Source: an uncultured Bacteriovoracaceae bacterium (GTDB lineage Bacteria; Bdellovibrionota; UBA1018). From it: a stretch of DNA of 64,000 nucleotides. A program made the translations under genes and the position numbers. The notes beneath the pieces were generated by a model. The model was not told the origin of the DNA. It saw only the letters and a list, made by a program, of their open reading frames with translations, and made no database searches. Location: contig CAYILR010000008.1 in NCBI GenBank assembly GCA_964364175.1, positions 32,001 through 96,000 on the forward strand. Reading direction: 5' to 3'. Positions 36,607-63,858 of the stretch are shown one piece after another. The number at the start of each line of letters is the position of its first letter. Within the stretch, counting starts at the first letter, position 1.

Positions 36607-36989
36607 GCGAAGCACAGTTCAACACGATGCTGACCGAGATCGAGAAGCAGATCGACTCCATGGACGAGAACCCTCCGCACATCCGCACGCGAGTCCTGTT
36701 CTTCCAGGCCATGGCCAAGCTCCTCGACGCCGACCGCTACATCAAGCCCGTCTACTCCCCGGTGAGGCTGGCCGTGGCCTGCATGACGATCAAGGTCTCT
36801 GTTCCTTCGGGAGTGGAGGAACAGACCATCGAAAACATGGTCCGCGTCATGGCGAAGGGCGCCGCCAAGGGCGTCATCCTCTACGCCAAGCGCGTTGCCT
36901 TGGTCGCGGAGTTGGACCTCATCAGCATCGTCGACGACATCATCGCAGCGGCCTTGAAGGACGTGAACGTCAAATTGGAGCTTTCATGA
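36603..36989 (+). CDS. hypothetical protein
   Basis: 128-codon ORF with ATGA overlaps on both sides, directly upstream of rtcB. Confidence 0.5.
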   Translation: MSEAQFNTMLTEIEKQIDSMDENPPHIRTRVLFFQAMAKLLDADRYIKPVYSPVRLAVACMTIKVSVPSGVEEQTIENMVRVMAKGAAKGVILYAKRVALVAELDLISIVDDIIAAALKDVNVKLELS

Positions 36990-38212
36990 GCGGACCTGAG
37001 ATTCTCGACGAGGGCGGCGCACCCATCTACGCCTGGACCAAAGGTGTGGAGCGCGAGGCGAGCGCGATGGAGCAGGTGGCGAAGCTGTCGAGGCTCCCCA
37101 TCATCCACGATCACGTCGCAATCATGGCAGATATGCACATGGGCATCGGCGCGACGGTGGGCTCGGTCATCGCAACCAAGGGCGCGATCATTCCAAGCGC
37201 AGTCGGCGTCGACATTGGGTGCGGCGTCATAGCTACTCGCACGAGCTTGAAGGCGAGCGACCTGCCCGAGAGCCTCGGAGGTCTACGTTCTGCGATCGAG
37301 CGCGCGGTGCCCCACGGCCGCACCTCCAATGGCGTCGCCGGCCAGGACCGGGGAGCCTGGGGTTCGCTGCCTGGGCCGGTTGATGCCGCCTGGAAGGCAG
37401 GACTCCACGATCGCTGGCAGGCCGTCGTCGACAAGCACCCGAAGGCCGCCGCCAAGAACACCGTTCACCAGCTTGGAACTCTTGGAACGGGCAATCACTT
37501 CGTTGAGGTCTGCCTCGACGAGGAACAGCACGTCTGGGTGATGTTGCACTCGGGGTCGCGCGGGCTCGGCAACCGCTTCGGTGAATACTTCATCGAGCTT
37601 GCCAAGGAGGACATGGGTCACCTGATCCACAACCTCCCGGACAAGGACCTGGCGTACCTCGCCGAGGGCACCGAGCACTTCAAGGACTACGTCGAGGCCG
37701 TCTCGATGGCCCAGGACTTCGCGCGCGTGAACCGCGAGATCATGATGGACCGGACCCTCGGCGCCCTGCGCAACTCCGGTGTGCTTCCGCCGTTCCAGTG
37801 GAAGTTGGAAACCACGAACTGCCACCACAACTATGTACAGAAGGAAACTCACCTTGGTGAGGAGGTCTTCATCACCCGCAAGGGCGCCGTCCGGGCTGGC
37901 CTCGGCGACATGGGGATAATCCCCGGCGCAATGGGCCGAAAAAGTTTCATCGTGCGGGGCAAGGGCTGCGCAGAGGCGTTCCACTCGTGCTCCCACGGCG
38001 CGGGCCGGAAGATGAGCCGCACGCAGGCGAAAAAGACCTTCACGTTGGAGGACCACGTCAAAGCGACCGAGGGTGTCGAGTGCCGCAAGGACGCCGACGT
38101 CATTGACGAGACGCCGATGGCCTACAAGGACATCGACGCCGTCATGGCCGCGCAGAGCGACCTCGTCGAGATCGTCCATACCCTCCAGGCCGTCGTTTGC
38201 GTGAAGGGTTGA
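36986..38212 (+). CDS. rtcB: RtcB-family RNA 3'-phosphate/5'-OH ligase
   Basis: MADMHMGIGATVGSV, AVGVDIGCG, GTLGTGNHFVE, HSGSRGLG, CHHNY and SCSHGAGR match conserved RtcB metal and GMP-histidine motifs. Confidence 0.9.
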   Translation: MSGPEILDEGGAPIYAWTKGVEREASAMEQVAKLSRLPIIHDHVAIMADMHMGIGATVGSVIATKGAIIPSAVGVDIGCGVIATRTSLKASDLPESLGGLRSAIERAVPHGRTSNGVAGQDRGAWGSLPGPVDAAWKAGLHDRWQAVVDKHPKAAAKNTVHQLGTLGTGNHFVEVCLDEEQHVWVMLHSGSRGLGNRFGEYFIELAKEDMGHLIHNLPDKDLAYLAEGTEHFKDYVEAVSMAQDFARVNREIMMDRTLGALRNSGVLPPFQWKLETTNCHHNYVQKETHLGEEVFITRKGAVRAGLGDMGIIPGAMGRKSFIVRGKGCAEAFHSCSHGAGRKMSRTQAKKTFTLEDHVKATEGVECRKDADVIDETPMAYKDIDAVMAAQSDLVEIVHTLQAVVCVKG

Positions 38213-46883: not shown

Positions 46884-49277
46884 ATGGTCGCCAAGATCAA
46901 GTCCCGTCCCAAGCTCGACGACGACGACCACGTCTGGGAATCCAAAGTCACCCAGACGCTCGAACGCTACTACCAACACAACCACGACCACGAAACCAAG
47001 GTCATCTGCTGGACGCAGACCCAACCGGCGTTCACAGACGAACAGCCCACGATCAACCAGTACGACTACGGCCACGGCTTCTACGTCCTCCTGGCCACCC
47101 CACTCACCCTCAAGCTCAGAGATCCCACCACCAAGGTCCAACGACTAGCTCATACGATAAAAGGACTCATAGAGAACATCGATAGCCTCATCGTCCGGTT
47201 CCCACCTACCGAAGCCGGCGCCCTAGAACGAGAACACCTGGTCAACACCAACGAAGCCATCGATCTCCCGTCTGGCTCCGTTCGGTCCATCAAAGCCAGG
47301 CTCCTCAACATCAAACGACACACCAAAAAAGACATCGGCTCCAAGCTCTACCTCAGAGCTTGTAAGCGCATTATCCACGCCATCCAGTGCGGCGCACAAT
47401 ACGAGAAACACAAATTCAACCCTCACACCGGGGAGGTCACAGCGACTTTCCTCGAAACCAAGGTCTGCAAGCTCCCCTGCTGCGCCAGACCCATCTGCCA
47501 CAACCAGACGAAGTCCAGAAAAGCCAGAGCCACCAACAAGGCCATCAAGAGACTCACCGCCCTAGCCAAGGACCAGGACCTCAGGCTCGTCATGGTGACG
47601 CTCACCCAGCCCTATGCCCTCCCCACCGAGGAGCGCAGAGCGCAGCGACACGGGTACCCGCAGCTTCACCTCATCGGTAGAGGTAAGCCAATCACCAACA
47701 GGCCCACACCACCAGTACTAGCCTCAGAGCGAAACTACCTCACCAAGAACCTCGACCAACACCAACTGGCCAGGTCCAAGTTCATCGCCAACAACCAGGC
47801 GAGAGATATACTCGCCTACCAGACCCACTACGTCTCCGAGTTCGCCTTCCTCATCCCGTCCGTACCAGGACACCGGTGTTTCCCTAACCCCCACACCCAC
47901 GTTCTGTCCGCCATCCCAAACTCGGCCGACCTCCAAGAAGCACAACAACAGCTACAGAAGGTCTACCAAAAGACGACCTCTCAGCCTCTCGCGGAGGTGC
48001 TCGTCTCCCCACTGTACTCGGATGACGCTACCGACGAAGAACGAACCGCTGCGCTTGAGGACTACTTTGGTAAGACCTTCGCTGTCACTCCTGACGTGAA
48101 GGACTACCGCTTCAGGGACCTCGGCATCATGGCCTCAGACTTCGTAAACGTCGTGGACGACAGAAGCCTGGCTGAAGTCATTGACTTTTACGACTTTCAG
48201 CCCGTCAAGAAGCTCACGGCCTCGTTCAACTACACCGCCGAACAACAAGACCTCTCTTCTCGGAAGAACCGAGCCATCGAACGCTTGCATCGGCTCATGC
48301 GACCCCTCAAGAACAAGAGCAAGAGCAAGAGCGTCGAGGAGCTTGACTCGGTTCCAGGTGTCTTTGATCCCAACCCTGCGGTCATCATCATGCCGGTCGG
48401 TACGTCAGATTTGTGGCCCGCTGGCGAGGTTCTTTCTGACTCTCAGGTTCCTGGTTCTCAAGCCAGGGCAGCCGAGTCCGCTTCGGACGGGGAGGGTTGT
48501 GAGCCCGAAAATAGGGAGCGAAGCTCGTTGGAAGGACAGGGAGGAGAGGTTCGGGTTGGTTGTGAGGTGGGAGGGAGGTCCCAGGGTCCAGGCCCGGCTT
48601 CAGTTGGGGGTTTGGATGACGGCGGCAGGACCGAAACTCGCCATGTTGGCGATGTCAGCTTCGTTGCTGAGTCGCGGATGGTACCAGCGCGCGGGCTGCT
48701 GGACCAACAAGCTGGTGATGGCTGGCTGGCCAAGCGGGATCACGGGAACGACGACCGAGAACTCGTCGCCTCCTATCTCCAGGCTCACCCCAGCCAGGAT
48801 GCCGACCCAGGACTTTGGGTGGAGGAAGACGACGACGATCTCATTGCCGCCAACAAGTACATGGCTTTGGTCGAGGAGCACTTGGTCCATGACCTGCTCC
48901 GTACCTGTGAGCAGGGAGACCGAGCCCGTGAACTGAAGGGGCTGCGCGTCCTCGTTGAGCCCGATGATGACTTGGACAGCATCGACAGCATCGAGGTACT
49001 CGGCATGGATGCCGAAGGCAGCCTTGCCGGTTCCCTGGTAGCCGGGGCTGAGTGGGGGATTGGCACCGGTGGTGACGACGGAAGTGAGGCTGTTGGCGGA
49101 GAAGCTGAACAAGTCCTTGCTGTCAAAGCCACGAAGCCCGATTCCGATGTAGGAGGTCAGGACCATGTTGGCGGAGAAGGTCACCGAGAACGTGACGGCT
49201 GGGAACGTGGGCGCCCCCAAAGTCACAGCCAATGCGGTGTTGCTTGCAGCGGCATCCAAGAGCAGCGGGTCCAGTAA
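46884..49277 (+). CDS. possible HUH-type rolling-circle Rep-like protein; C-terminal third probably non-coding read-through
   Basis: RLVMVTLTQP is motif I-like (about 47587-47612), PNPHTHVLSAI is HUH-like (about 47892-47900), and EDYFGKT is YxxK-like (Tyr codon 48063-48065). C/A-rich strand bias runs from 46884 to about 48430. No in-frame stop occurs before 49277, so the ORF runs antisense into 48600-50600. Confidence 0.4.
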   Translation: MVAKIKSRPKLDDDDHVWESKVTQTLERYYQHNHDHETKVICWTQTQPAFTDEQPTINQYDYGHGFYVLLATPLTLKLRDPTTKVQRLAHTIKGLIENIDSLIVRFPPTEAGALEREHLVNTNEAIDLPSGSVRSIKARLLNIKRHTKKDIGSKLYLRACKRIIHAIQCGAQYEKHKFNPHTGEVTATFLETKVCKLPCCARPICHNQTKSRKARATNKAIKRLTALAKDQDLRLVMVTLTQPYALPTEERRAQRHGYPQLHLIGRGKPITNRPTPPVLASERNYLTKNLDQHQLARSKFIANNQARDILAYQTHYVSEFAFLIPSVPGHRCFPNPHTHVLSAIPNSADLQEAQQQLQKVYQKTTSQPLAEVLVSPLYSDDATDEERTAALEDYFGKTFAVTPDVKDYRFRDLGIMASDFVNVVDDRSLAEVIDFYDFQPVKKLTASFNYTAEQQDLSSRKNRAIERLHRLMRPLKNKSKSKSVEELDSVPGVFDPNPAVIIMPVGTSDLWPAGEVLSDSQVPGSQARAAESASDGEGCEPENRERSSLEGQGGEVRVGCEVGGRSQGPGPASVGGLDDGGRTETRHVGDVSFVAESRMVPARGLLDQQAGDGWLAKRDHGNDDRELVASYLQAHPSQDADPGLWVEEDDDDLIAANKYMALVEEHLVHDLLRTCEQGDRARELKGLRVLVEPDDDLDSIDSIEVLGMDAEGSLAGSLVAGAEWGIGTGGDDGSEAVGGEAEQVLAVKATKPDSDVGGQDHVGGEGHRERDGWERGRPQSHSQCGVACSGIQEQRVQ

Positions 49278-50600
49278 GTCTTTCGCCGGGGCACCAAGCA
49301 CCACCTCACCGTTCACCTTCACAGCGACGAATCCGTCGTAGTCGAATGTGGCGTCAAGCAACTCGAAGGTGAAGGCGACGGCTGGATTCCACGCCTTCGA
49401 GACAACCGCCAGCGTCGTGTTGCCCCGGTAGAGCTTCGCCACCGCCAAGTTGGTGCTTGTCTTTTCGATGACAACAGAAACTTGACTATTCAGTAACGTG
49501 AACGCAACAAACGGATAGACGGTCACGCTAGGGGTAAACGCGATGGCCATGGTGGTGGTGAGCCCGCGGCCCGCTCGCGCCATGGAGTCCATGCCGCCAG
49601 TAAACAGCACCTCAAAGGGAGCGCCGGCAGTCTTGTTGAGGGTCGTGGTTCCTATACCGACGGTCTCGGTTCCGGCGCCGACAGCCGATGACGCCTGGTT
49701 GAGCCAGGACGCCCCCACAGCCACGGTGCGGGGCACGGTGGCCAGACCGAAGGTCTCGGAGGCCCCGAGGGTGTGGGAGCCCTCTGGGGCCACCAGGAGC
49801 GCTGGGGAGGTGCCTTCCTCCAAGGTCGAGCCCAGCGACCCGGCGCTGAGGTTGTAGACACCGGGAAACAGAGGCCAGTGTTCCAGATCTGGGTACTTGC
49901 CAAGCGTCTGTGAGCAAGTTGCGGTCAGCTTCTCCTCAGTGATCGCCAGAGCCGTCAGCGTGGGGGCCTGGCCTTGGCCCCACGCCATCTGGCTCTCTTG
50001 CCCGGCCAAGAGAGTCACGTTGGTTGCGTTATCAACGAACACTTCGCGGTTCAAGTTGACGGCGTAGCGAGCACCAGCCGTGAAGGGAGCTTCGAGGGTG
50101 ACCCGGAGGGTGGCGCCGGATTGGGAGAGGCCGATGACGGCGGGTTGGCGGGCCAAGTCGATCGGTGAAATCTGCACAACGTCTGCATACACATCGAACT
50201 CGATGGTTGCGATGGTTGCGGAGAATACGACGTCGAACTCGGAGGGACTCACCCAGACGATGGAGGACACAATGAGATCAGCTACTGTGACCGCGAACGT
50301 CTGGGTCACGAACGCCGGGTTCATCGGCGTACCATCAGCCATCGACTGGGCTGTGCCGGCAATCGTGACCGTGTAGCCACCAGCCAACGGCGCCGGGGAG
50401 GTCAGCAGAAGCTCGAATTCCACATCCGACCGCCGGATCACGGATGTGATCGCCGGGAGCCCGCCACCAGGAGTCCAAAGTGCTGGGTTTTCAGGGTCTT
50501 CTGGGGCCGAAGTTCCGAGCTTTCGCATCGGGACATCGAACATCGCTAGGATGGATGATTGGCCTGATCCGTTTGCATAGATGAGCTTCGGTGCTGCCAT
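48600..50600 (-). CDS. large Thr/Ala/Val/Ser-rich protein, probably virion structural (fibre or baseplate-like)
   Basis: 666-codon ORF with beta-rich, low-charge composition and no enzyme motifs. Confidence 0.55.
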   Translation of the reverse strand: MAAPKLIYANGSGQSSILAMFDVPMRKLGTSAPEDPENPALWTPGGGLPAITSVIRRSDVEFELLLTSPAPLAGGYTVTIAGTAQSMADGTPMNPAFVTQTFAVTVADLIVSSIVWVSPSEFDVVFSATIATIEFDVYADVVQISPIDLARQPAVIGLSQSGATLRVTLEAPFTAGARYAVNLNREVFVDNATNVTLLAGQESQMAWGQGQAPTLTALAITEEKLTATCSQTLGKYPDLEHWPLFPGVYNLSAGSLGSTLEEGTSPALLVAPEGSHTLGASETFGLATVPRTVAVGASWLNQASSAVGAGTETVGIGTTTLNKTAGAPFEVLFTGGMDSMARAGRGLTTTMAIAFTPSVTVYPFVAFTLLNSQVSVVIEKTSTNLAVAKLYRGNTTLAVVSKAWNPAVAFTFELLDATFDYDGFVAVKVNGEVVLGAPAKDLLDPLLLDAAASNTALAVTLGAPTFPAVTFSVTFSANMVLTSYIGIGLRGFDSKDLFSFSANSLTSVVTTGANPPLSPGYQGTGKAAFGIHAEYLDAVDAVQVIIGLNEDAQPLQFTGSVSLLTGTEQVMDQVLLDQSHVLVGGNEIVVVFLHPKSWVGILAGVSLEIGGDEFSVVVPVIPLGQPAITSLLVQQPARWYHPRLSNEADIANMASFGPAAVIQTPN

Positions 50601-51918: not shown

Positions 51919-51965
51919 CCTGATCTGCCAAGACAACTTGACGTTTTCAACCGAGGGACTATGAT
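51919..51965 (+). promoter_or_regulatory. sigma-70-type promoter with upstream CCTGATCTG element
   Basis: CCTGATCTGCCAAGACAACTTGACGTTTTCAACCGAGGGACTATGAT, with AAGGAG and a GTG start following at 51989. Confidence 0.6.
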
Positions 51966-51988: not shown

Positions 51989-52927
51989 GTGGCCATCAAG
52001 AAGAAGACCTTTTCGGCGGCGGACCGGGCGGCGTACATCGAGTCGAAGAAGAACGAGGTCAAGGGTCTCCTCGACACGCTCACCGACAACGTCAAGGCGC
52101 TCACGTCCAGCGACGACTGGAAGAAGTACCTCAAGTTCCAGACCTTCTTCCGCCGCTACAGCTTCAACAACGTCCTTCTCATCACGATCCAGTGCCCGAA
52201 CGCCACGGCGGTCGCCGGATACCGCACCTGGCAGAAGGCCGGGCGCCAGGTGAAGAAGGGCGCCAAGAGCATCAAGATCTTGGCCCCCATCGTCCGCAAG
52301 TTCAACGTCAAGGCTGAGAACGACCAGGGCCAGATGGAGGAGACCGAGAAGAAGAGCCTCTACTTCCGCGCTGTGCCGGTGTTCGACGTGAGCCAGACCG
52401 AAGGTGAGCCACTCCCGACGGCGCAGCGCTGCACGCTCCTGAGCGGCAACGAGGCCGAGGCGACCGAGGCGTTCGACACGCTCTTGAGCTTCGCCTCCGA
52501 CCTCGGCTACAAGGTCGAAGACGAGGCGCTGGCCGAGGGGTTCAACGGCTACGTGGACTTCAACGCGAAGCGCATCGTCCTTCGCGCCTCGAACCCCAAG
52601 CTCCAGAAGGCCAAGACCTTGGCCCACGAGATCGCCCACGCGCTCCTACACAGCACCCCCGAGCTTCGCAAGGACATTGCCCATGACTCGTCGGACCACC
52701 GCGAGGTCGAGGCTGAGTCGGTGGCCTTCTGCGTGATGAACGCCTTTGGCCTCGACTCCGGCAGCTACAGTTTTGGGTATGTCGCAACCTGGGCTGGCGG
52801 CGACGCGAAGAAGATCCAGCAGTCGGCGTCGCGTATCCAGAAGGCCGTGTGCCAGATCTTGGACGCGGTCCTGCCCGAGAACAGCCAGGACGAGAGCGAC
52901 GAAGACAGCGCCGCCGAAGCGGCATGA
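51989..52927 (+). CDS. ArdC-like protein (N-terminal ssDNA-binding domain plus HExxH zincin domain)
   Basis: LKFQTFFRRYSFNNVLLITIQCPNATAVAGYRTWQKAGRQVKKGAKSIKILAPI matches the ArdC N-terminal pattern, and HEIAHALLH lies in the C-terminal half. Confidence 0.65.
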   Translation: MAIKKKTFSAADRAAYIESKKNEVKGLLDTLTDNVKALTSSDDWKKYLKFQTFFRRYSFNNVLLITIQCPNATAVAGYRTWQKAGRQVKKGAKSIKILAPIVRKFNVKAENDQGQMEETEKKSLYFRAVPVFDVSQTEGEPLPTAQRCTLLSGNEAEATEAFDTLLSFASDLGYKVEDEALAEGFNGYVDFNAKRIVLRASNPKLQKAKTLAHEIAHALLHSTPELRKDIAHDSSDHREVEAESVAFCVMNAFGLDSGSYSFGYVATWAGGDAKKIQQSASRIQKAVCQILDAVLPENSQDESDEDSAAEAA

Positions 52928-52966
52928 GCACTTGAGGACCAAAGCGACATCAACTAGGAGGATTTC

Positions 52967-53527
52967 ATGACGATGAAGAAAGAGCGGATCAACCACTACG
53001 AGTTCGTTGCCGACGTGCGCAAGCGCCTCGAAGTCGGGCTCGCCAAGTACGGCAGCGCGCTGCACATCAGTGGCAACATGGGCGCCGGCAGCATCTTCGC
53101 CGAGATCGAGCCGACCTTCGGGCTCGCCGTGAAGCTGGCCGTCGATGCGGACCTGCTGCGCGACCCCGAGGGTGGCGCCGTCAAGACGACCGTCACCTGC
53201 TCGTGCTCACACCAGACGCCGGGCTTTGCGCTGCTCATGGCGTCGATGATGCAGGATGCGGCCAACCTCGCGCTCCTCATCGAGGCGGCCTACGACAGTA
53301 AGCTCGTTTTCTTCGAGGCGAAGTGCATCGTCGAGTTGACGGCCGTCGGCGACAAGAAGATCGAAGTCATCAAGCTCGTTCGCGCGATCACCGGACTGCC
53401 GCTCAAGGAGGCCAAGGACTTCGTCGACGCTGCGCCCAAGAACGTCGGCGAAGCGCTGCCCAGGATCGAAGCCGAAGCCTTCAAGGCGAGGCTCGAAGCC
53501 CAAGGCGCCATCGTCACCCTCAAGTGA
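52967..53527 (+). CDS. protein with a C-terminal ribosomal bL12 (L7/L12) C-terminal-domain homolog
   Basis: [65 protein letters not shown] aligns with the E. coli bL12 CTD ([27 protein letters not shown]...AEALKKALEEAGAEVEVK). The N-terminal 110 aa or so are unrelated. Confidence 0.7.
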
Positions 53528-53542
53528 GAGGCAGCCTGAACG

Positions 53543-53923
53543 ATGACCTCCCGCAACCCACAGAAGGACCTGTCGCTGTCCGTCCGCCTCCGGAACGTGC
53601 TCTACTTCATGGAGATCGACAGCGAAGAGAAGCTCGACGAAGCCCTCGGCTCTGGCCTGCTCCGTACCAAGCGGAACATCGGGCCGAAGTCCATCGCCGA
53701 GGCCGCCGCTTGGCTCAGGGCGCAGTCGTTCGCCGGTATGGAGGACGGAGCCGTGCTCCGGCTCGATGTCGATGAGCGCGGCTGGAAGATCTGGCGTGGT
53801 ATCTCGGCTGTCGAGGACAAGGAACTCGCGCCGATGATGCCGGGACAGGCGCTCGTGTTCATCACAGACGCTTGGCCGGTGGGCACAGTGATCGAGGTCA
53901 GCGTACCAAGAAAGGCAACCTGA
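53543..53923 (+). CDS. protein with an RNA polymerase alpha-subunit CTD-like helix-hairpin-helix domain
   Basis: LSLSVRLRNVLYFMEIDSEEKLDEALGSGLLRTKRNIGPKSIAEAAAWL follows the alpha-CTD pattern LxLSVRxxNCL...L...LL...NxGxKSLxEI. Confidence 0.5.
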   Translation: MTSRNPQKDLSLSVRLRNVLYFMEIDSEEKLDEALGSGLLRTKRNIGPKSIAEAAAWLRAQSFAGMEDGAVLRLDVDERGWKIWRGISAVEDKELAPMMPGQALVFITDAWPVGTVIEVSVPRKAT

Positions 53924-53926
53924 ACC

Positions 53927-55408
53927 ATGCCAGCCAACCTCGACGCCATCATCAAGAAGCTCGCCAAGAAGGTCAAGATCGGTGAGTACGACCCGATGGA
54001 GGTCGTCGAGGCGCTCAACCTCACCGAGCCAGGTTGGACCATCGAGCCCATCACGACGACGATGCAGGCGTCGGGCTACAGCAATCAAAAGGAACGGTTC
54101 GAGCGCTTGTGGGCTGAAGCTCTCAAGCTCGACGTCAGCAGCAAGCACCGCACGGAGTTCACCGACGTCCCACCCGACATGGAGCCCATCGCGCTCCACA
54201 CCGACCATCTGTCCATCCATTGGAAGGAAGGGAACAAGCTCACGCCGAAGCAGGCCGAAGACCAGTTGAAGGATGTCCTCGCCAAGCTGGAGAAGCCACT
54301 CATCAAGGGCAAGACGCTGCCGTCGAACCTCCAGGTCGACGGGCTCTATTTTGCCGGCTTCAAGAAGCCAGATCCCGGCTACCGGGGCGCCAGCGTTGAC
54401 CTCATCAAGCCGAGGCTCGGCGTGCCGGGCTTCCTCATCAAGAGCCCCACGGGCGCGGAGCTTGAGCTTCCGGTGCAGCCCACCGGTCGAGCCGGGCCAG
54501 GCGACCCCACCAAGCTCGCAGCGGCCATGATCTGGACGTGGCTCTACAAAGAGACCGACGCACCGGCGAAGGCAGCCGCGTACCTGGAGAACCCGGAGAC
54601 GCAGGCCCGCCACGGCGCTCAGAGTCGGACGAAGGAGATCGCCGAAGCCGGTGGTGCCGGCAACGTCGGCTCATGTCCCATCTGTGACCGTCTCCAGAAG
54701 CTTGAAAAGAAGCGGACCAGAAGCGGGCACCCCGTCATGGTCCACCACGGCTACAAGCGCCCAGGAACCGGGTACATCTACGGCGACTGCTTCGGCGTCG
54801 GGTACCCTCCCTACGAGCTTTCCGCCGAAGGTTGTGAGGCGTACCTCGTCCAACTGGCTGAGTGGATCAAGAGGCAGAAGGAGCGCGTCGCCAACATCAA
54901 GGCTCGACAGGAGATGGAGTGCTGGCTCGGGATGCCGGAGAGCAAATACCGGCCTGCTGAGGAGTACAAGCTCGTCACGATCCACAAGAACGGCCGCATG
55001 GAGGACCAGGGAGAAGCGCCGCTGACCCGAGATCAGGCCCGGAAGATGATGGGCGTCGGCAAGGATTGGAACGAGCGCCAGGTGCAGCAGAAGTTTTGGG
55101 AGGGAAAGAAGAAGGGCCGGAACTCGCGGGTCGTCAATGCGGATCCCGGTGCTGATCCCGCTGCCATCTTCAACAAGGTGCAGCAGGCTGACCTGAAGGA
55201 AGCTGAGGGCGAGCTTCGGCAGATGGAGAACGACCAAGCTCACTTCGAGAAGAAGATCCGCGATTGGACGCTCCAGCCGCTGCCAGGCACGACGACAGCC
55301 TCGACCCGCATGGACGAGGTGGCCGAGAAGCTCCTAGCCTTCACGACGCCCGAGAAGGTCCGGGCCGCGGTCGAAGAAGCCGCCGACCTCCTGGCCAAGC
55401 TGGAGTGA
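53927..55408 (+). CDS. hypothetical protein (493 aa)
   Basis: Long ORF that starts 4 nt after the upstream stop; contains a CPICD...HHGY...GDCFG cluster. Confidence 0.6.
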   Translation: MPANLDAIIKKLAKKVKIGEYDPMEVVEALNLTEPGWTIEPITTTMQASGYSNQKERFERLWAEALKLDVSSKHRTEFTDVPPDMEPIALHTDHLSIHWKEGNKLTPKQAEDQLKDVLAKLEKPLIKGKTLPSNLQVDGLYFAGFKKPDPGYRGASVDLIKPRLGVPGFLIKSPTGAELELPVQPTGRAGPGDPTKLAAAMIWTWLYKETDAPAKAAAYLENPETQARHGAQSRTKEIAEAGGAGNVGSCPICDRLQKLEKKRTRSGHPVMVHHGYKRPGTGYIYGDCFGVGYPPYELSAEGCEAYLVQLAEWIKRQKERVANIKARQEMECWLGMPESKYRPAEEYKLVTIHKNGRMEDQGEAPLTRDQARKMMGVGKDWNERQVQQKFWEGKKKGRNSRVVNADPGADPAAIFNKVQQADLKEAEGELRQMENDQAHFEKKIRDWTLQPLPGTTTASTRMDEVAEKLLAFTTPEKVRAAVEEAADLLAKLE

Positions 55409-55927: not shown

Positions 55928-56308
55928 ATGTCTCTCGGACACATTGAGTATTGTTCAAGATGCGGCAAAGACGTCAACGGCACTGGGCTTGGCTGTCGAG
56001 CCCATGGCCCGTCGATGGCAAGCGCAACAAGGAGCGCTGTGCTCGCGCAAGTCCTACGCTCTCCTGAGCTTCTGGAGGAGATGGCGGCGCTGGAACACCT
56101 CCGTTGGTCGGGCTGGGAGACGTACCGAGAGTCCATCTTGGAGAAGGGCGACCGCCGTAAGCCAGAGGACCCGGAGACGCACCTGGAGCGCTGGAAGAGG
56201 CTGCGTGAGACGCCGTACCGGGACCTCACCGAAGCCGAGAAGGAGAGCGATCGAGTCGAAGCCCGAAAGACCCGAGATCTCATCATCGTGGCTCTGGGAC
56301 TGGAATGA
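55928..56308 (+). CDS. RyR-domain-like protein (tentative)
   Basis: [17 protein letters not shown]...[31 protein letters not shown] resembles the RyR repeat pattern. ATG at 55928 is preceded by GAAAGGGAG; the ORF is open from 55853. Confidence 0.45.
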
Positions 56309-56643
56309 CACGGCCCATCCCGCCAGAGGCCATGCACTACGGGGACGCCGTGCGCCTCCTGCGGGAAGCGCAGCGTATGACCCTGCGGGCTCTCGCTAGG
56401 AAGGTCGGGCTCTCGGCCCCGTTCCTCTCGGACCTGGAACACGGCCGCCGTCGAACGGACCATCACGAAGCCCTCGCCGCCGCGCTCGACGTCGATGAGG
56501 CCGAGCTTCGAGCCCTCGACGGCCGCATCACCCAGGCCATGAAGGACTGGATGGAGAAGAACCCCAAGCTCGTCGCCTTCTTGGAGGAGTGCCGGAAGCG
56601 GCGAGTCGATCCGATGAACCTGGTGCTCAGAGAGACCACATGA
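56305..56643 (+). CDS. XRE-family helix-turn-helix regulator
   Basis: [34 protein letters not shown] is a typical Cro/C1 HTH. Confidence 0.65.
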
Positions 56644-56951
56644 ACATCTGGGACAAGCCGTACATGGAGCACGGGCCGACCATCACCACGACGGCAAACA
56701 CACAGCTTGCTGACGGCACCGATGTTCCGGTGCGGGGCGTGGACCTGGCTATGCTCCAGCGTCTGGTGGATGTGGTTGGGGTGGAACGCGCAAACGCGAT
56801 GCTGACGGGGGAGCCGCTTTCCGCTCCCCCGTCAGCACCTACGCGCATCCCGACTAGGAATGAGCTACCTCGTATCAGTGACATCCCGAAGTACCGACGC
56901 AGACCAGCGGTCGGAGGGCCGAGCACCTCGGTGGCCATCCCATGCCTATGA
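56640..56951 (+). CDS. hypothetical protein
   Basis: The ATG at 56640 overlaps the upstream stop as ATGA. Confidence 0.45.
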   Translation: MNIWDKPYMEHGPTITTTANTQLADGTDVPVRGVDLAMLQRLVDVVGVERANAMLTGEPLSAPPSAPTRIPTRNELPRISDIPKYRRRPAVGGPSTSVAIPCL

Positions 56952-57622
56952 CCAATGACGTCAAGACCCAGCGAGATGAGCGACAAGCCACCGTGGCCAA
57001 GTGGTGCGCCGAGGCATTCGGCCAGGACCACGCCTCGTCGCTGCCCCAGCGTGGTCTGAGGCTCTTGGAGGAGGCACTTGAAGCCGCGCAAGCCGCTGGT
57101 GTTCCGCTGGCTCAGGCGCATCACGTCGTCGACTACGTCTACGGACGGCCGGTTGGGGAGCTTCAACAGGAGCTTGGTGGCATCGGCGTGACGGTTCTCG
57201 CCCTCGCAGCCGCGGCCGGGCTTTCGGCCGAAGAGGCTGAGGCTCGGGAGGTGGCGCGCGTCCTATCGAAACCGATAGAGCACTTCCGCCGTCGCAACAT
57301 CGAGAAAAACGAAGCGGGCCTCGAAGCTCGCCCCGACGCAGCCACCAGGCTCAACGCCGAGGCCGAGATGCTCAACAAGCTGGTGATCACGCTGCGCGAA
57401 ACGAGGCAACGAGACGCCGCCAAGATCGCGAAGCTTAAGAAGGCGCTCGAAGCTGGTCCGGCCCGGCTTCGGGAGATGGCCGACGACTACGACCGGAAGC
57501 TGCTATTGCACGACTTTTCCAAGGCCCGGTCTTCAGAAATGGCCGCGTTGATTCGATCTGCCGACCTCATCAACGCGGCGCTCCACGTCGAGGCTGCTCA
57601 GGAAAAGGCGATGGAGCCGTGA
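56942..57622 (+). CDS. hypothetical protein (possibly MazG-like all-alpha NTP pyrophosphohydrolase)
   Basis: LRLLEEALEAAQAAG...ELQQELGGIGVTVLALAA weakly fits the EExxE pattern of MazG-type proteins. Confidence 0.4.
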   Translation: MPMTNDVKTQRDERQATVAKWCAEAFGQDHASSLPQRGLRLLEEALEAAQAAGVPLAQAHHVVDYVYGRPVGELQQELGGIGVTVLALAAAAGLSAEEAEAREVARVLSKPIEHFRRRNIEKNEAGLEARPDAATRLNAEAEMLNKLVITLRETRQRDAAKIAKLKKALEAGPARLREMADDYDRKLLLHDFSKARSSEMAALIRSADLINAALHVEAAQEKAMEP

Positions 57623-62592: not shown

Positions 62593-63858
62593 ATGATGAA
62601 GGCGTTTCGTTTCCGTGTTTACCCAACCGCCGAACAAGAGGCGAGGCTGGAGGCATGGGAAGGCGCTTTGAGATTCCTCTGGAATCTTGCTCATGAACAA
62701 CGCTTGATGGGACTGCACACCGTGCGTGACCGACGCCGCTATTACACGGCGGTTGATCAGCAACGCGGTCTAACAGAACTCCGGGCGGAGCTACCGTGGT
62801 TGGCAGATGTTCCACGCCATGTCTGCGCCCAGGTCCTCGTAGAGTTAGATAAGGCTTGGCAGCGGACTTTCAAGAAGTTGGGCGGAGAGCCTCGTTTCAA
62901 GAAATTGGGCCGTGATGGCGTCGCTATCTGCGAGACCGATCCCAAGGTATGGAGCTTCGTCAATGACCACATCCGTTTTCCAAAACTGGGCGTGCTGAAG
63001 ACAGTGCTGCACCGACCGATCGATGGTAAGCCAAAGACATGTAGCCTAACACGAGACGTAGATGCTTGGTTCGTGTCCATCGTTTGTGAGTTACCAGGTG
63101 AGGAGCCGAAGCCCGGTACGGCAACTGGGCCTTCGGTAGCTATTGACCGAGGCGTTGCCTTGCTGCTCGCTGACAGCGATGGGCGAACTGTCGAGAACCA
63201 GGAACATCTACAGCGAGCCAGGAAACACCTAGCTCGCGCGCAACGGCGGGTTAGCAAGAAAATGAAAGGATCGAAGAACCGCGAGAAGGCGAAACGCCGG
63301 GTTGCGGTTCTTCATCGAAAGATCCGACGACAACGAGATCACCAACTGCACGTCCAAAGCTCGTACTATGCCAAGAACCACGGCGTAGTTATTGTAGAGG
63401 ACCTCAACATCCGAGGCATGACGAAGTCAGCCTCCGGTACAAAGGAGAAGCCAGGTAAGAATGTAGCTGCAAAGTCCGGCCTCAACCGCTCGATTCTCGA
63501 TGCGGGTTGGGGACGCTTTGCTCAAATGCTCGACTACAAGCTGAAGTGGCGCGGTGGAATTCTTCTGAAGGTTCCAGCGCACTATTCGTCGCAGACGTGC
63601 GCGAAGTGTGGCCATGTCGATGCTAAAAATCGGGTATCCCAAGCGCGGTTTTGGTGTACAGCGTGCGATTACGAAGCCAACGCTGATATCAATGCTGCGT
63701 GTGTACTTCTCAGCCGTGGAATCCACGGTGCAGCAGTCTGTGGAGGATCTTCCGCCCTAGGGAAGCCTGCGAAGCAGAAACTCCGCGTTGCGAGACGTGG
63801 AAATCAACCAACGATAGGAATCTCCTCGGAGAAACCTATGGTCACGGGGAATTTGTGA
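62593..63858 (+). CDS. tnpB: TnpB (OrfB_IS605 family, RuvC-like RNA-guided nuclease)
   Basis: N-terminal MKAFRFRVYPTAEQE, RuvC residues in VAIDRGV, VVIVEDLN and NADINAA, and zinc finger CAKCGH...CTACDY. Confidence 0.85.
   Translation: MMKAFRFRVYPTAEQEARLEAWEGALRFLWNLAHEQRLMGLHTVRDRRRYYTAVDQQRGLTELRAELPWLADVPRHVCAQVLVELDKAWQRTFKKLGGEPRFKKLGRDGVAICETDPKVWSFVNDHIRFPKLGVLKTVLHRPIDGKPKTCSLTRDVDAWFVSIVCELPGEEPKPGTATGPSVAIDRGVALLLADSDGRTVENQEHLQRARKHLARAQRRVSKKMKGSKNREKAKRRVAVLHRKIRRQRDHQLHVQSSYYAKNHGVVIVEDLNIRGMTKSASGTKEKPGKNVAAKSGLNRSILDAGWGRFAQMLDYKLKWRGGILLKVPAHYSSQTCAKCGHVDAKNRVSQARFWCTACDYEANADINAACVLLSRGIHGAAVCGGSSALGKPAKQKLRVARRGNQPTIGISSEKPMVTGNL

Follow-up and report, generated by a model that had tools for sequence, protein, structure and literature searches.

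A groundwater phage protein in which a bL12 C-terminal domain is joined directly to an orphan carrier domain

In a stretch of 64,000 nucleotides that we treat as part of the genome of an uncultured groundwater phage, and which is referred to throughout as the window, a single gene (gene A) encodes a protein whose C-terminal part is a genuine C-terminal domain of the ribosomal protein bL12 (the head). The head is joined directly to an N-terminal carrier domain that belongs to an orphan family and is predicted to form a homodimer. The join is real, and the fusion is unique to this protein among the known relatives of its carrier. Gene A lies between a gene for an ArdC-like protein and a gene (gene B) for a small protein whose front half resembles the RNA polymerase α-subunit's C-terminal domain (alpha-CTD). 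The positions of these features in the window are collected in Table 1.

Table 1. Features of the gene A locus and of the contigs that cross the join, in window positions
Feature	Positions	Strand	Description
RtcB-type tRNA/RNA ligase	36986-38212	+	phrog_1075, E 3.7e-139
Sigma-70-like promoter	51938..51965	+	TTGACG, 16 nt, TATGAT; consensus match only, 10/12 positions
ArdC-like gene	51989..52927	+	312 aa; ArdC N-terminal ssDNA-binding domain and zincin protease, HEIAH motif
Gene A	52967-53527	+	186 aa
Gene A N-terminal domain	52967..53323	+	residues 1-119; orphan α+β sandwich, predicted homodimer
Gene A bL12 C-terminal domain and stop codon	53330..53527	+	residues 122-186; PF00542
Gene B	53543..53923	+	126 aa
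Gene B N-terminal alpha-CTD-like helix-hairpin-helix region	53561-53725	+	residues ~7-61
Gene C	53927..55408	+	493 aa, from the ORF list; function-less PHROG matches only
Contig across the join, run X2	52593-54036		study P1 (likely the study of the source sample; different sample)
Contig across the join, run X4	53166-54023		study P2
Contig across the join, run X7	53169-53406		study P4

Results and discussion

Genomic context

The window corresponds to positions 32001-96000 of contig C8 (102,440 bp), one of the 104 contigs of a 4.1 Mb assembly. The contig encodes a UvsX-like recombinase, a Dda-like helicase and an RtcB ligase, as identified by PHROG matches, and these bear out the earlier assignment of gene A to a phage. 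Its G+C content is 59.2%, compared with 49.3% for the whole bin, and the stretch is present in groundwater metagenomes from four studies. On the basis of the phage-type gene content, the G+C mismatch and the occurrence in groundwater, C8 is taken here as a phage contig that was mis-binned into the metagenome-assembled genome. The difference in G+C content also makes it unlikely that the bin represents the host, so it is unsafe to infer the host from the genes of the bin, and the ribosomal genes of the bin need not be those of the host.

The phage genome is much concerned with the translation apparatus, since it carries one tmRNA gene and nine class II tRNA genes together with the RtcB-type ligase and an AbiEii-type nucleotidyltransferase, the latter identified by Pfam. 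No relative of the locus at the DNA level was found in the phage record collection, and scans of viral contigs and of metagenome contigs returned no relatives.

Several other genes of the window were recorded in passing. An ORF of 421 residues on the plus strand (62593-63858) matches phage 'transposase' families (phrog_506, E 1.9e-95) and is possibly an IS element within the phage genome. A plus-strand gene for 226 residues (56942-57622) has a strong match to PHROGs with no function assigned (phrog_8593, E 5.9e-37), and a gene for a helix-turn-helix regulator lies upstream of it at 56305-56643. Two long ORFs, at 46884-49277 on the plus strand and at 48600-50600 on the minus strand, overlap by about 680 nt, and neither has a PHROG match.

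The bL12-type head of gene A

Residues 122-186 of gene A correspond to positions 3-67 of the 67 positions of the Pfam family Ribosomal_L12 (PF00542), with an E value of 1.3e-23 and a score of 83.5 bits (cut-off 25.9), and in a sequence search the same segment matches solved bL12 chains at E values of about 1e-11. The head aligns with the product of the rplL gene of the bin without gaps and with 62% identity; its identity to the bL12 proteins of many phyla is 55-74%, the upper value of about 74% being reached in a large protein collection. In the AlphaFold model of gene A, which was obtained with an alignment of five rows and has a pLDDT of 80, the head superimposes on the C-terminal domain of Escherichia coli bL12 (PDB entry 1ctf) with a TM score of 0.93 and an rmsd of 1.1 Å, and comparison of the model with bL12 from Mycobacterium tuberculosis (8yeq_A) gives a VIA Z score of 13.7. 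These results confirm the identity of the domain, for which the earlier note on this DNA, made from the sequence alone, had recommended such a superposition. The reading frames and boundaries that it gave for genes A and B are likewise correct, and so is its view that gene A is something other than an ordinary rplL: the bin has a separate, full-length rplL, which is paired with rplJ on another contig (C42).

The surface by which bL12 meets translational GTPases is largely retained. Residues 122-186 of gene A are equivalent to residues 10-74 of 1ctf, and the E. coli residue number is obtained by subtracting 66 from that of gene A. Contacts with the EF-G G′ subdomain have been reported for the bL12 residues V66-V68, K70, L80 and E82 (PMC5887453); the corresponding residues of gene A are I132-E133-V134, K136, L146 and E148, and all of them are kept or conservatively changed. 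Comparison with the 118 closest bL12 sequences showed that the helix 4-helix 5 block, comprising residues 130-153, is the best conserved part of the head, and also that four near-invariant bL12 positions are altered (E137L, G145P, L152F and K161G). The substitution G145P is located in the loop between helix 4 and helix 5, beside the contact residues.

The GC3 of the head-coding part is 0.86, within the range of 0.82-0.91 of the neighbouring phage genes. This phage-like GC3, together with an identity to cellular bL12 of no more than about 74%, indicates that the capture of the head is not brand new and that the frame has stayed intact since then.

When the head was searched with tblastn, most matches were rplL genes of bacteria within records labelled as phage. 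Reads of bacterial rplL likewise raise the metagenome depth over the head-coding region. One contig in run X6, from a different organism, aligns with the head-coding part at window positions 53347-53382 and then diverges, continuing with rplL-type sequence.

The carrier domain and the join

Residues 1-119 of gene A match no Pfam family, and a search of gene A for the N-terminal domain of bL12 (Ribosomal_L12_N, PF16320) gave no match at E values up to 1, in agreement with the earlier description of an unrelated N-terminal region in place of the dimerization and bL10-binding domain. In the AF2 model, which has a pLDDT of about 85 over these residues, the region consists of a helix, a four-stranded sheet and a long helix arranged as an α+β sandwich. 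The Ala/Gly-rich hinge of bL12 was not found in gene A; in the model only about six residues lie between the strand formed by residues 112-115 and the strand formed by residues 122-127.

The structural neighbours of the carrier are middling, with VIA Z scores of 6.2 or less. Candidate assignments to KA1/AMPK, Crl or START-type domains (Z 5-6.2), as well as to RWD domains or UBC-like clusters, were set aside, the strength of all of these matches being typical of common arrangements, and no function was drawn from them.

When 1.84 billion representative proteins were searched in full with HMMER, only four relatives of the carrier domain emerged (P0127, P0002, P0128 and P0129). They are 43-57% identical to gene A, have lengths of 128, 113, 124 and 118 residues and stand alone, each ending where the carrier domain ends; PF00542 is found in none of the four. 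Because all four are without the head, the fusion is read as a capture in a single lineage. A further weak match (E 3.6e-4) to P0130, an RHS-repeat protein of 1923 residues, looks spurious.

The join itself lies near position 53325, where Logan contigs span it with 0 differences. Independent assemblies from three groundwater studies cross it identically (Table 1), which excludes an assembly chimera as the origin of gene A.

When two copies of residues 1-119 were modelled together, an ipSAE of 0.68 was obtained in three runs, compared with at best 0.00 among three controls, and the runs showed a contact agreement of at least 95% and a partner pLDDT of at least 87. The predicted interface is formed by the strand of residues 74-79 and the helix of residues 85-106. 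Of 30 proteins whose solved structures are same-chain pairs, 20 attained an ipSAE of 0.68, as did one of 23 solved as single chains, counts that hold only roughly as a reference here because the dimer run used its own alignment of five rows. The modelling thus supports homodimerization of the carrier, by which two heads would be displayed off the ribosome.

The operon and its other genes

The gene directly upstream of gene A had been described in the earlier note as ArdC-like, and it matches PF08401 (E 5.1e-14), PF06114 (Peptidase_M78, E 3.1e-9) and the anti-restriction protein family phrog_7245 (E 2.2e-21). The gaps between this gene and genes A, B and C, all on the plus strand, are 39, 15 and 3 nt, and an AGGAGG ribosome-binding site is located 5 nt 5′ of the ATG of gene A. 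Four sigma-70-like sites were found in the region, compared with 1.0 expected in shuffled sequences. Consensus motifs of this kind suggest that the four genes may form one tight, promoter-led operon, and both the structure and the timing of this putative operon are read from them. The public runs listed as containing the stretch include no RNA run.

Gene C has no Pfam family, and its PHROG matches are weak (phrog_28271, E 2e-8). A short Cys/His-rich stretch at about residues 248-327 of its product likewise matches only function-less PHROGs.

Gene B had been proposed to begin with a helix-hairpin-helix of the alpha-CTD pattern. The resemblance behind this proposal is there but weak, and it includes the alignment of the residues of the alpha 265 determinant; the sole Pfam match of gene B, to RNA_pol_A_CTD (PF03118), has an E value of 0.015 and a score of 15.4 bits, below the cut-off of 23.8. 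A total of six members, gene B and P0122-P0126, make up its family among 5.8 billion clusters, and three of the six match PF03118 weakly, the best of them with an E value of 0.005. In a profile search of the PDB with a profile of three family members, all 19 matches, although weak, were to RNA polymerase α (best E 0.03), and comparison of gene B with an alignment of thirteen alpha-CTDs using hhalign gave an E value of 0.003 and a probability of 10%. Searches of the ESM Atlas led to PF03118 and NusA-type clusters, with a structural lead to a PF03118 cluster at a TM score of 0.49.

The AF2 model of gene B has a pLDDT of 64, too low to judge the fold from it; Foldseek returned nothing for it at an E value of 0.001 or better and VIA nothing above a Z score of 2.5. 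The C-terminal half is β-rich. When the bin was searched in all six frames with an HMM built from the first 66 alignment columns of gene B, rpoA was not picked out, nor was it by a genome search with the gene B family alignment, and a scan of genome contigs with the family gave no relatives. We consider it probable that the front half of gene B has a fold of the alpha-CTD type.

With the α-subunit numbering taken from the alignment ranges of 1lb2_B, residues R15, N18, N45, G47, K49, S50 and E53 of gene B align on α residues 265, 268, 294, 296, 298, 299 and 302, respectively, and R15, N45, G47 and E53 are invariant across the six members of the family. Residue 265 of the α-subunit and its neighbours constitute the DNA-binding determinant, with N268, C269 and S299 in or near it (PMC1874639). 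The positions of gene B that align with the 261 and 287 determinants are, by our own reading of the alignments, not conserved. Since the residues of the 265 determinant align and those of the 261 and 287 determinants do not persist, the conservation pattern suggests DNA binding rather than mimicry of the α-subunit as a decoy for activators. The broader proposal of the earlier note, that genes A and B might together make up a host-takeover or decoy cassette, is a hypothesis drawn from their neighbourhood; a decoy or takeover function would be plausible.

Possible roles of gene A

Without the uL10-binding N-terminal domain, gene A cannot take the place that bL12 occupies in the ribosomal stalk, and because its head keeps the docking surface for translational GTPases while having no seat in the stalk, action off the ribosome is the most likely. 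We therefore tentatively favour a role for gene A as an off-ribosome, two-headed binder of stalk clients. A bL12 head would have been captured from a bacterium and welded directly, with no hinge, to the C-terminus of a phage-specific α+β domain. Made from a promoter-led operon that opens with the ArdC-like anti-restriction gene, the soluble two-headed protein would bind stalk clients such as EF-Tu, EF-G, IF2 and RF3, or any other protein that takes hold of the stalk, and the bound clients might be withheld or brought to whatever the carrier domain binds. Gene B would then supply a small protein, the front half of which is probably a helix-hairpin-helix DNA-binding module of the alpha-CTD type. 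We infer that gene A may dimerize, bind factors and be expressed early, and that it may in some way affect the host. Isolated bL12 heads bind factors weakly, as is known from the NMR literature, so a decoy would need either high expression or avidity.

The restriction of the head to one lineage means that it could be a passenger. According to this alternative, which we find the less likely of the two but which carries real weight, the head was acquired by chance and is idle or has been re-purposed as a generic binding or solubility module, with the real function residing in the carrier. The carrier works alone in all four of its relatives, several near-invariant bL12 positions of the head have been altered, and the same fold serves quite different binding in ClpS, the chains of which match the gene A model with Z scores of 9-10 (VIA). 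However, the EF-G contact residues and the helix 4-helix 5 block have been retained, the frame is intact with phage-like codon usage, and the identical sequence recurs in groundwater sampled by several studies in different years, all of which argues against a passenger.

Replacement of the stalk, in which gene A would join host ribosomes and supply them with phage-specific heads, has been proposed for other viral bL12-domain proteins, and a peptide of the 418-residue bL12-domain protein of phage FSL SP-076 was indeed detected in purified 70S ribosomes (PMC6375957). For gene A we regard such a role as improbable: it has neither the Ribosomal_L12_N domain nor the hinge, and its carrier is a sandwich of about 115 residues rather than a uL10-binding helical hairpin. 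In addition, a tagged viral bL12 protein was not usable for ribosome purification (PMC6375957).

Slimmer still is the prospect that free heads would sequester host defence effectors or toxins which seize the stalk, such as the type III CRISPR effector Cami1. The suggestion is circumstantial, being prompted by the ArdC-like anti-restriction gene at the head of the putative operon and by the complex of Cami1 with the 70S ribosome (8phj), which has a resolved bL12 C-terminal domain chain that matches the gene A model; no decoy of this kind is known to have been described, however, and by its G+C content the bin is unlikely to be the host. In the fuller version of this idea, which would be just as far from our expectation, the two-headed decoy would catch host immune effectors or toxins, for instance Cami1-type CARF-RelE nucleases, that must attach to the bL12 stalk on their way to the A site, and it would share an operon devoted to anti-defence with the ArdC-like protein and the alpha-CTD-like DNA binder.

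Significance

Of the ribosomal-protein fragments that occur in phages, captured bL12 heads rank second in frequency. Among these heads, gene A offers a clean case for experiment, with only 186 residues, a near-cellular head that has kept the contact residues and a carrier that is predicted to be dimeric, and the natural head-less relatives of the carrier can serve as controls. If gene A binds translational GTPases or stalk-dependent defence proteins, phages can tap factor recruitment without touching the ribosome; if it binds no such factor, many similar fusions are more likely to be structural passengers.

Comparison with known systems

The ArdC-like gene upstream of gene A shares with ArdC of conjugative plasmids both the ArdC N-terminal domain and the zincin protease domain, but is here borne by a phage. 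Compared with the alpha-CTD of RpoA (PF03118; 1lb2 and 1z3e), residues ~7-61 of gene B align over the whole two-hairpin core, whereas gene B is without the N-terminal domain of the α-subunit, has an additional β-rich C-terminal half and stays below the Pfam cut-off.

With bacterial bL12 (RplL), gene A shares the sequence, the fold and the factor-contact residues of the C-terminal domain. It differs in the absence of the N-terminal domain for dimerization and uL10 binding and of the flexible hinge, as well as in its location, since it is flanked by the ArdC-like gene and gene B in a phage operon and does not follow rplJ. In its predicted two-headed form, gene A would mirror the bL12 dimer as a soluble protein.

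Proteins of phages in which a bL12 domain is embedded were described earlier by Mizuno et al. (2019, Nat Commun 10:752; PMC6375957), examples being the 418-residue proteins of Salmonella phage FSL SP-058/076, the 724-residue protein of Erwinia phage Ea9-2 and the 98-residue protein of Ralstonia phage RSB3. Homologues of these viral carriers without the bL12 domain exist (PMC6375957). Fusions of this type are thus already known, and gene A adds another member. In both cases a PF00542 domain is found in a phage protein whose remaining parts bear no relation to bL12, the factor-contact residues are kept, homologues of the flanking part occur without the domain, and the capture was independent and lineage-specific. 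The head of gene A is, however, closer to cellular bL12, with 62-74% identity compared with 30-40% for the proteins of Mizuno et al.; it is terminal and joined without a tether, and its carrier belongs to a different, orphan family and is predicted to dimerize. Particular to gene A are a head so similar to cellular bL12, its terminal attachment without a hinge and the predicted dimeric carrier, as well as the position behind an ArdC-like gene and the occurrence in a phage with many RNAs and enzymes related to translation.
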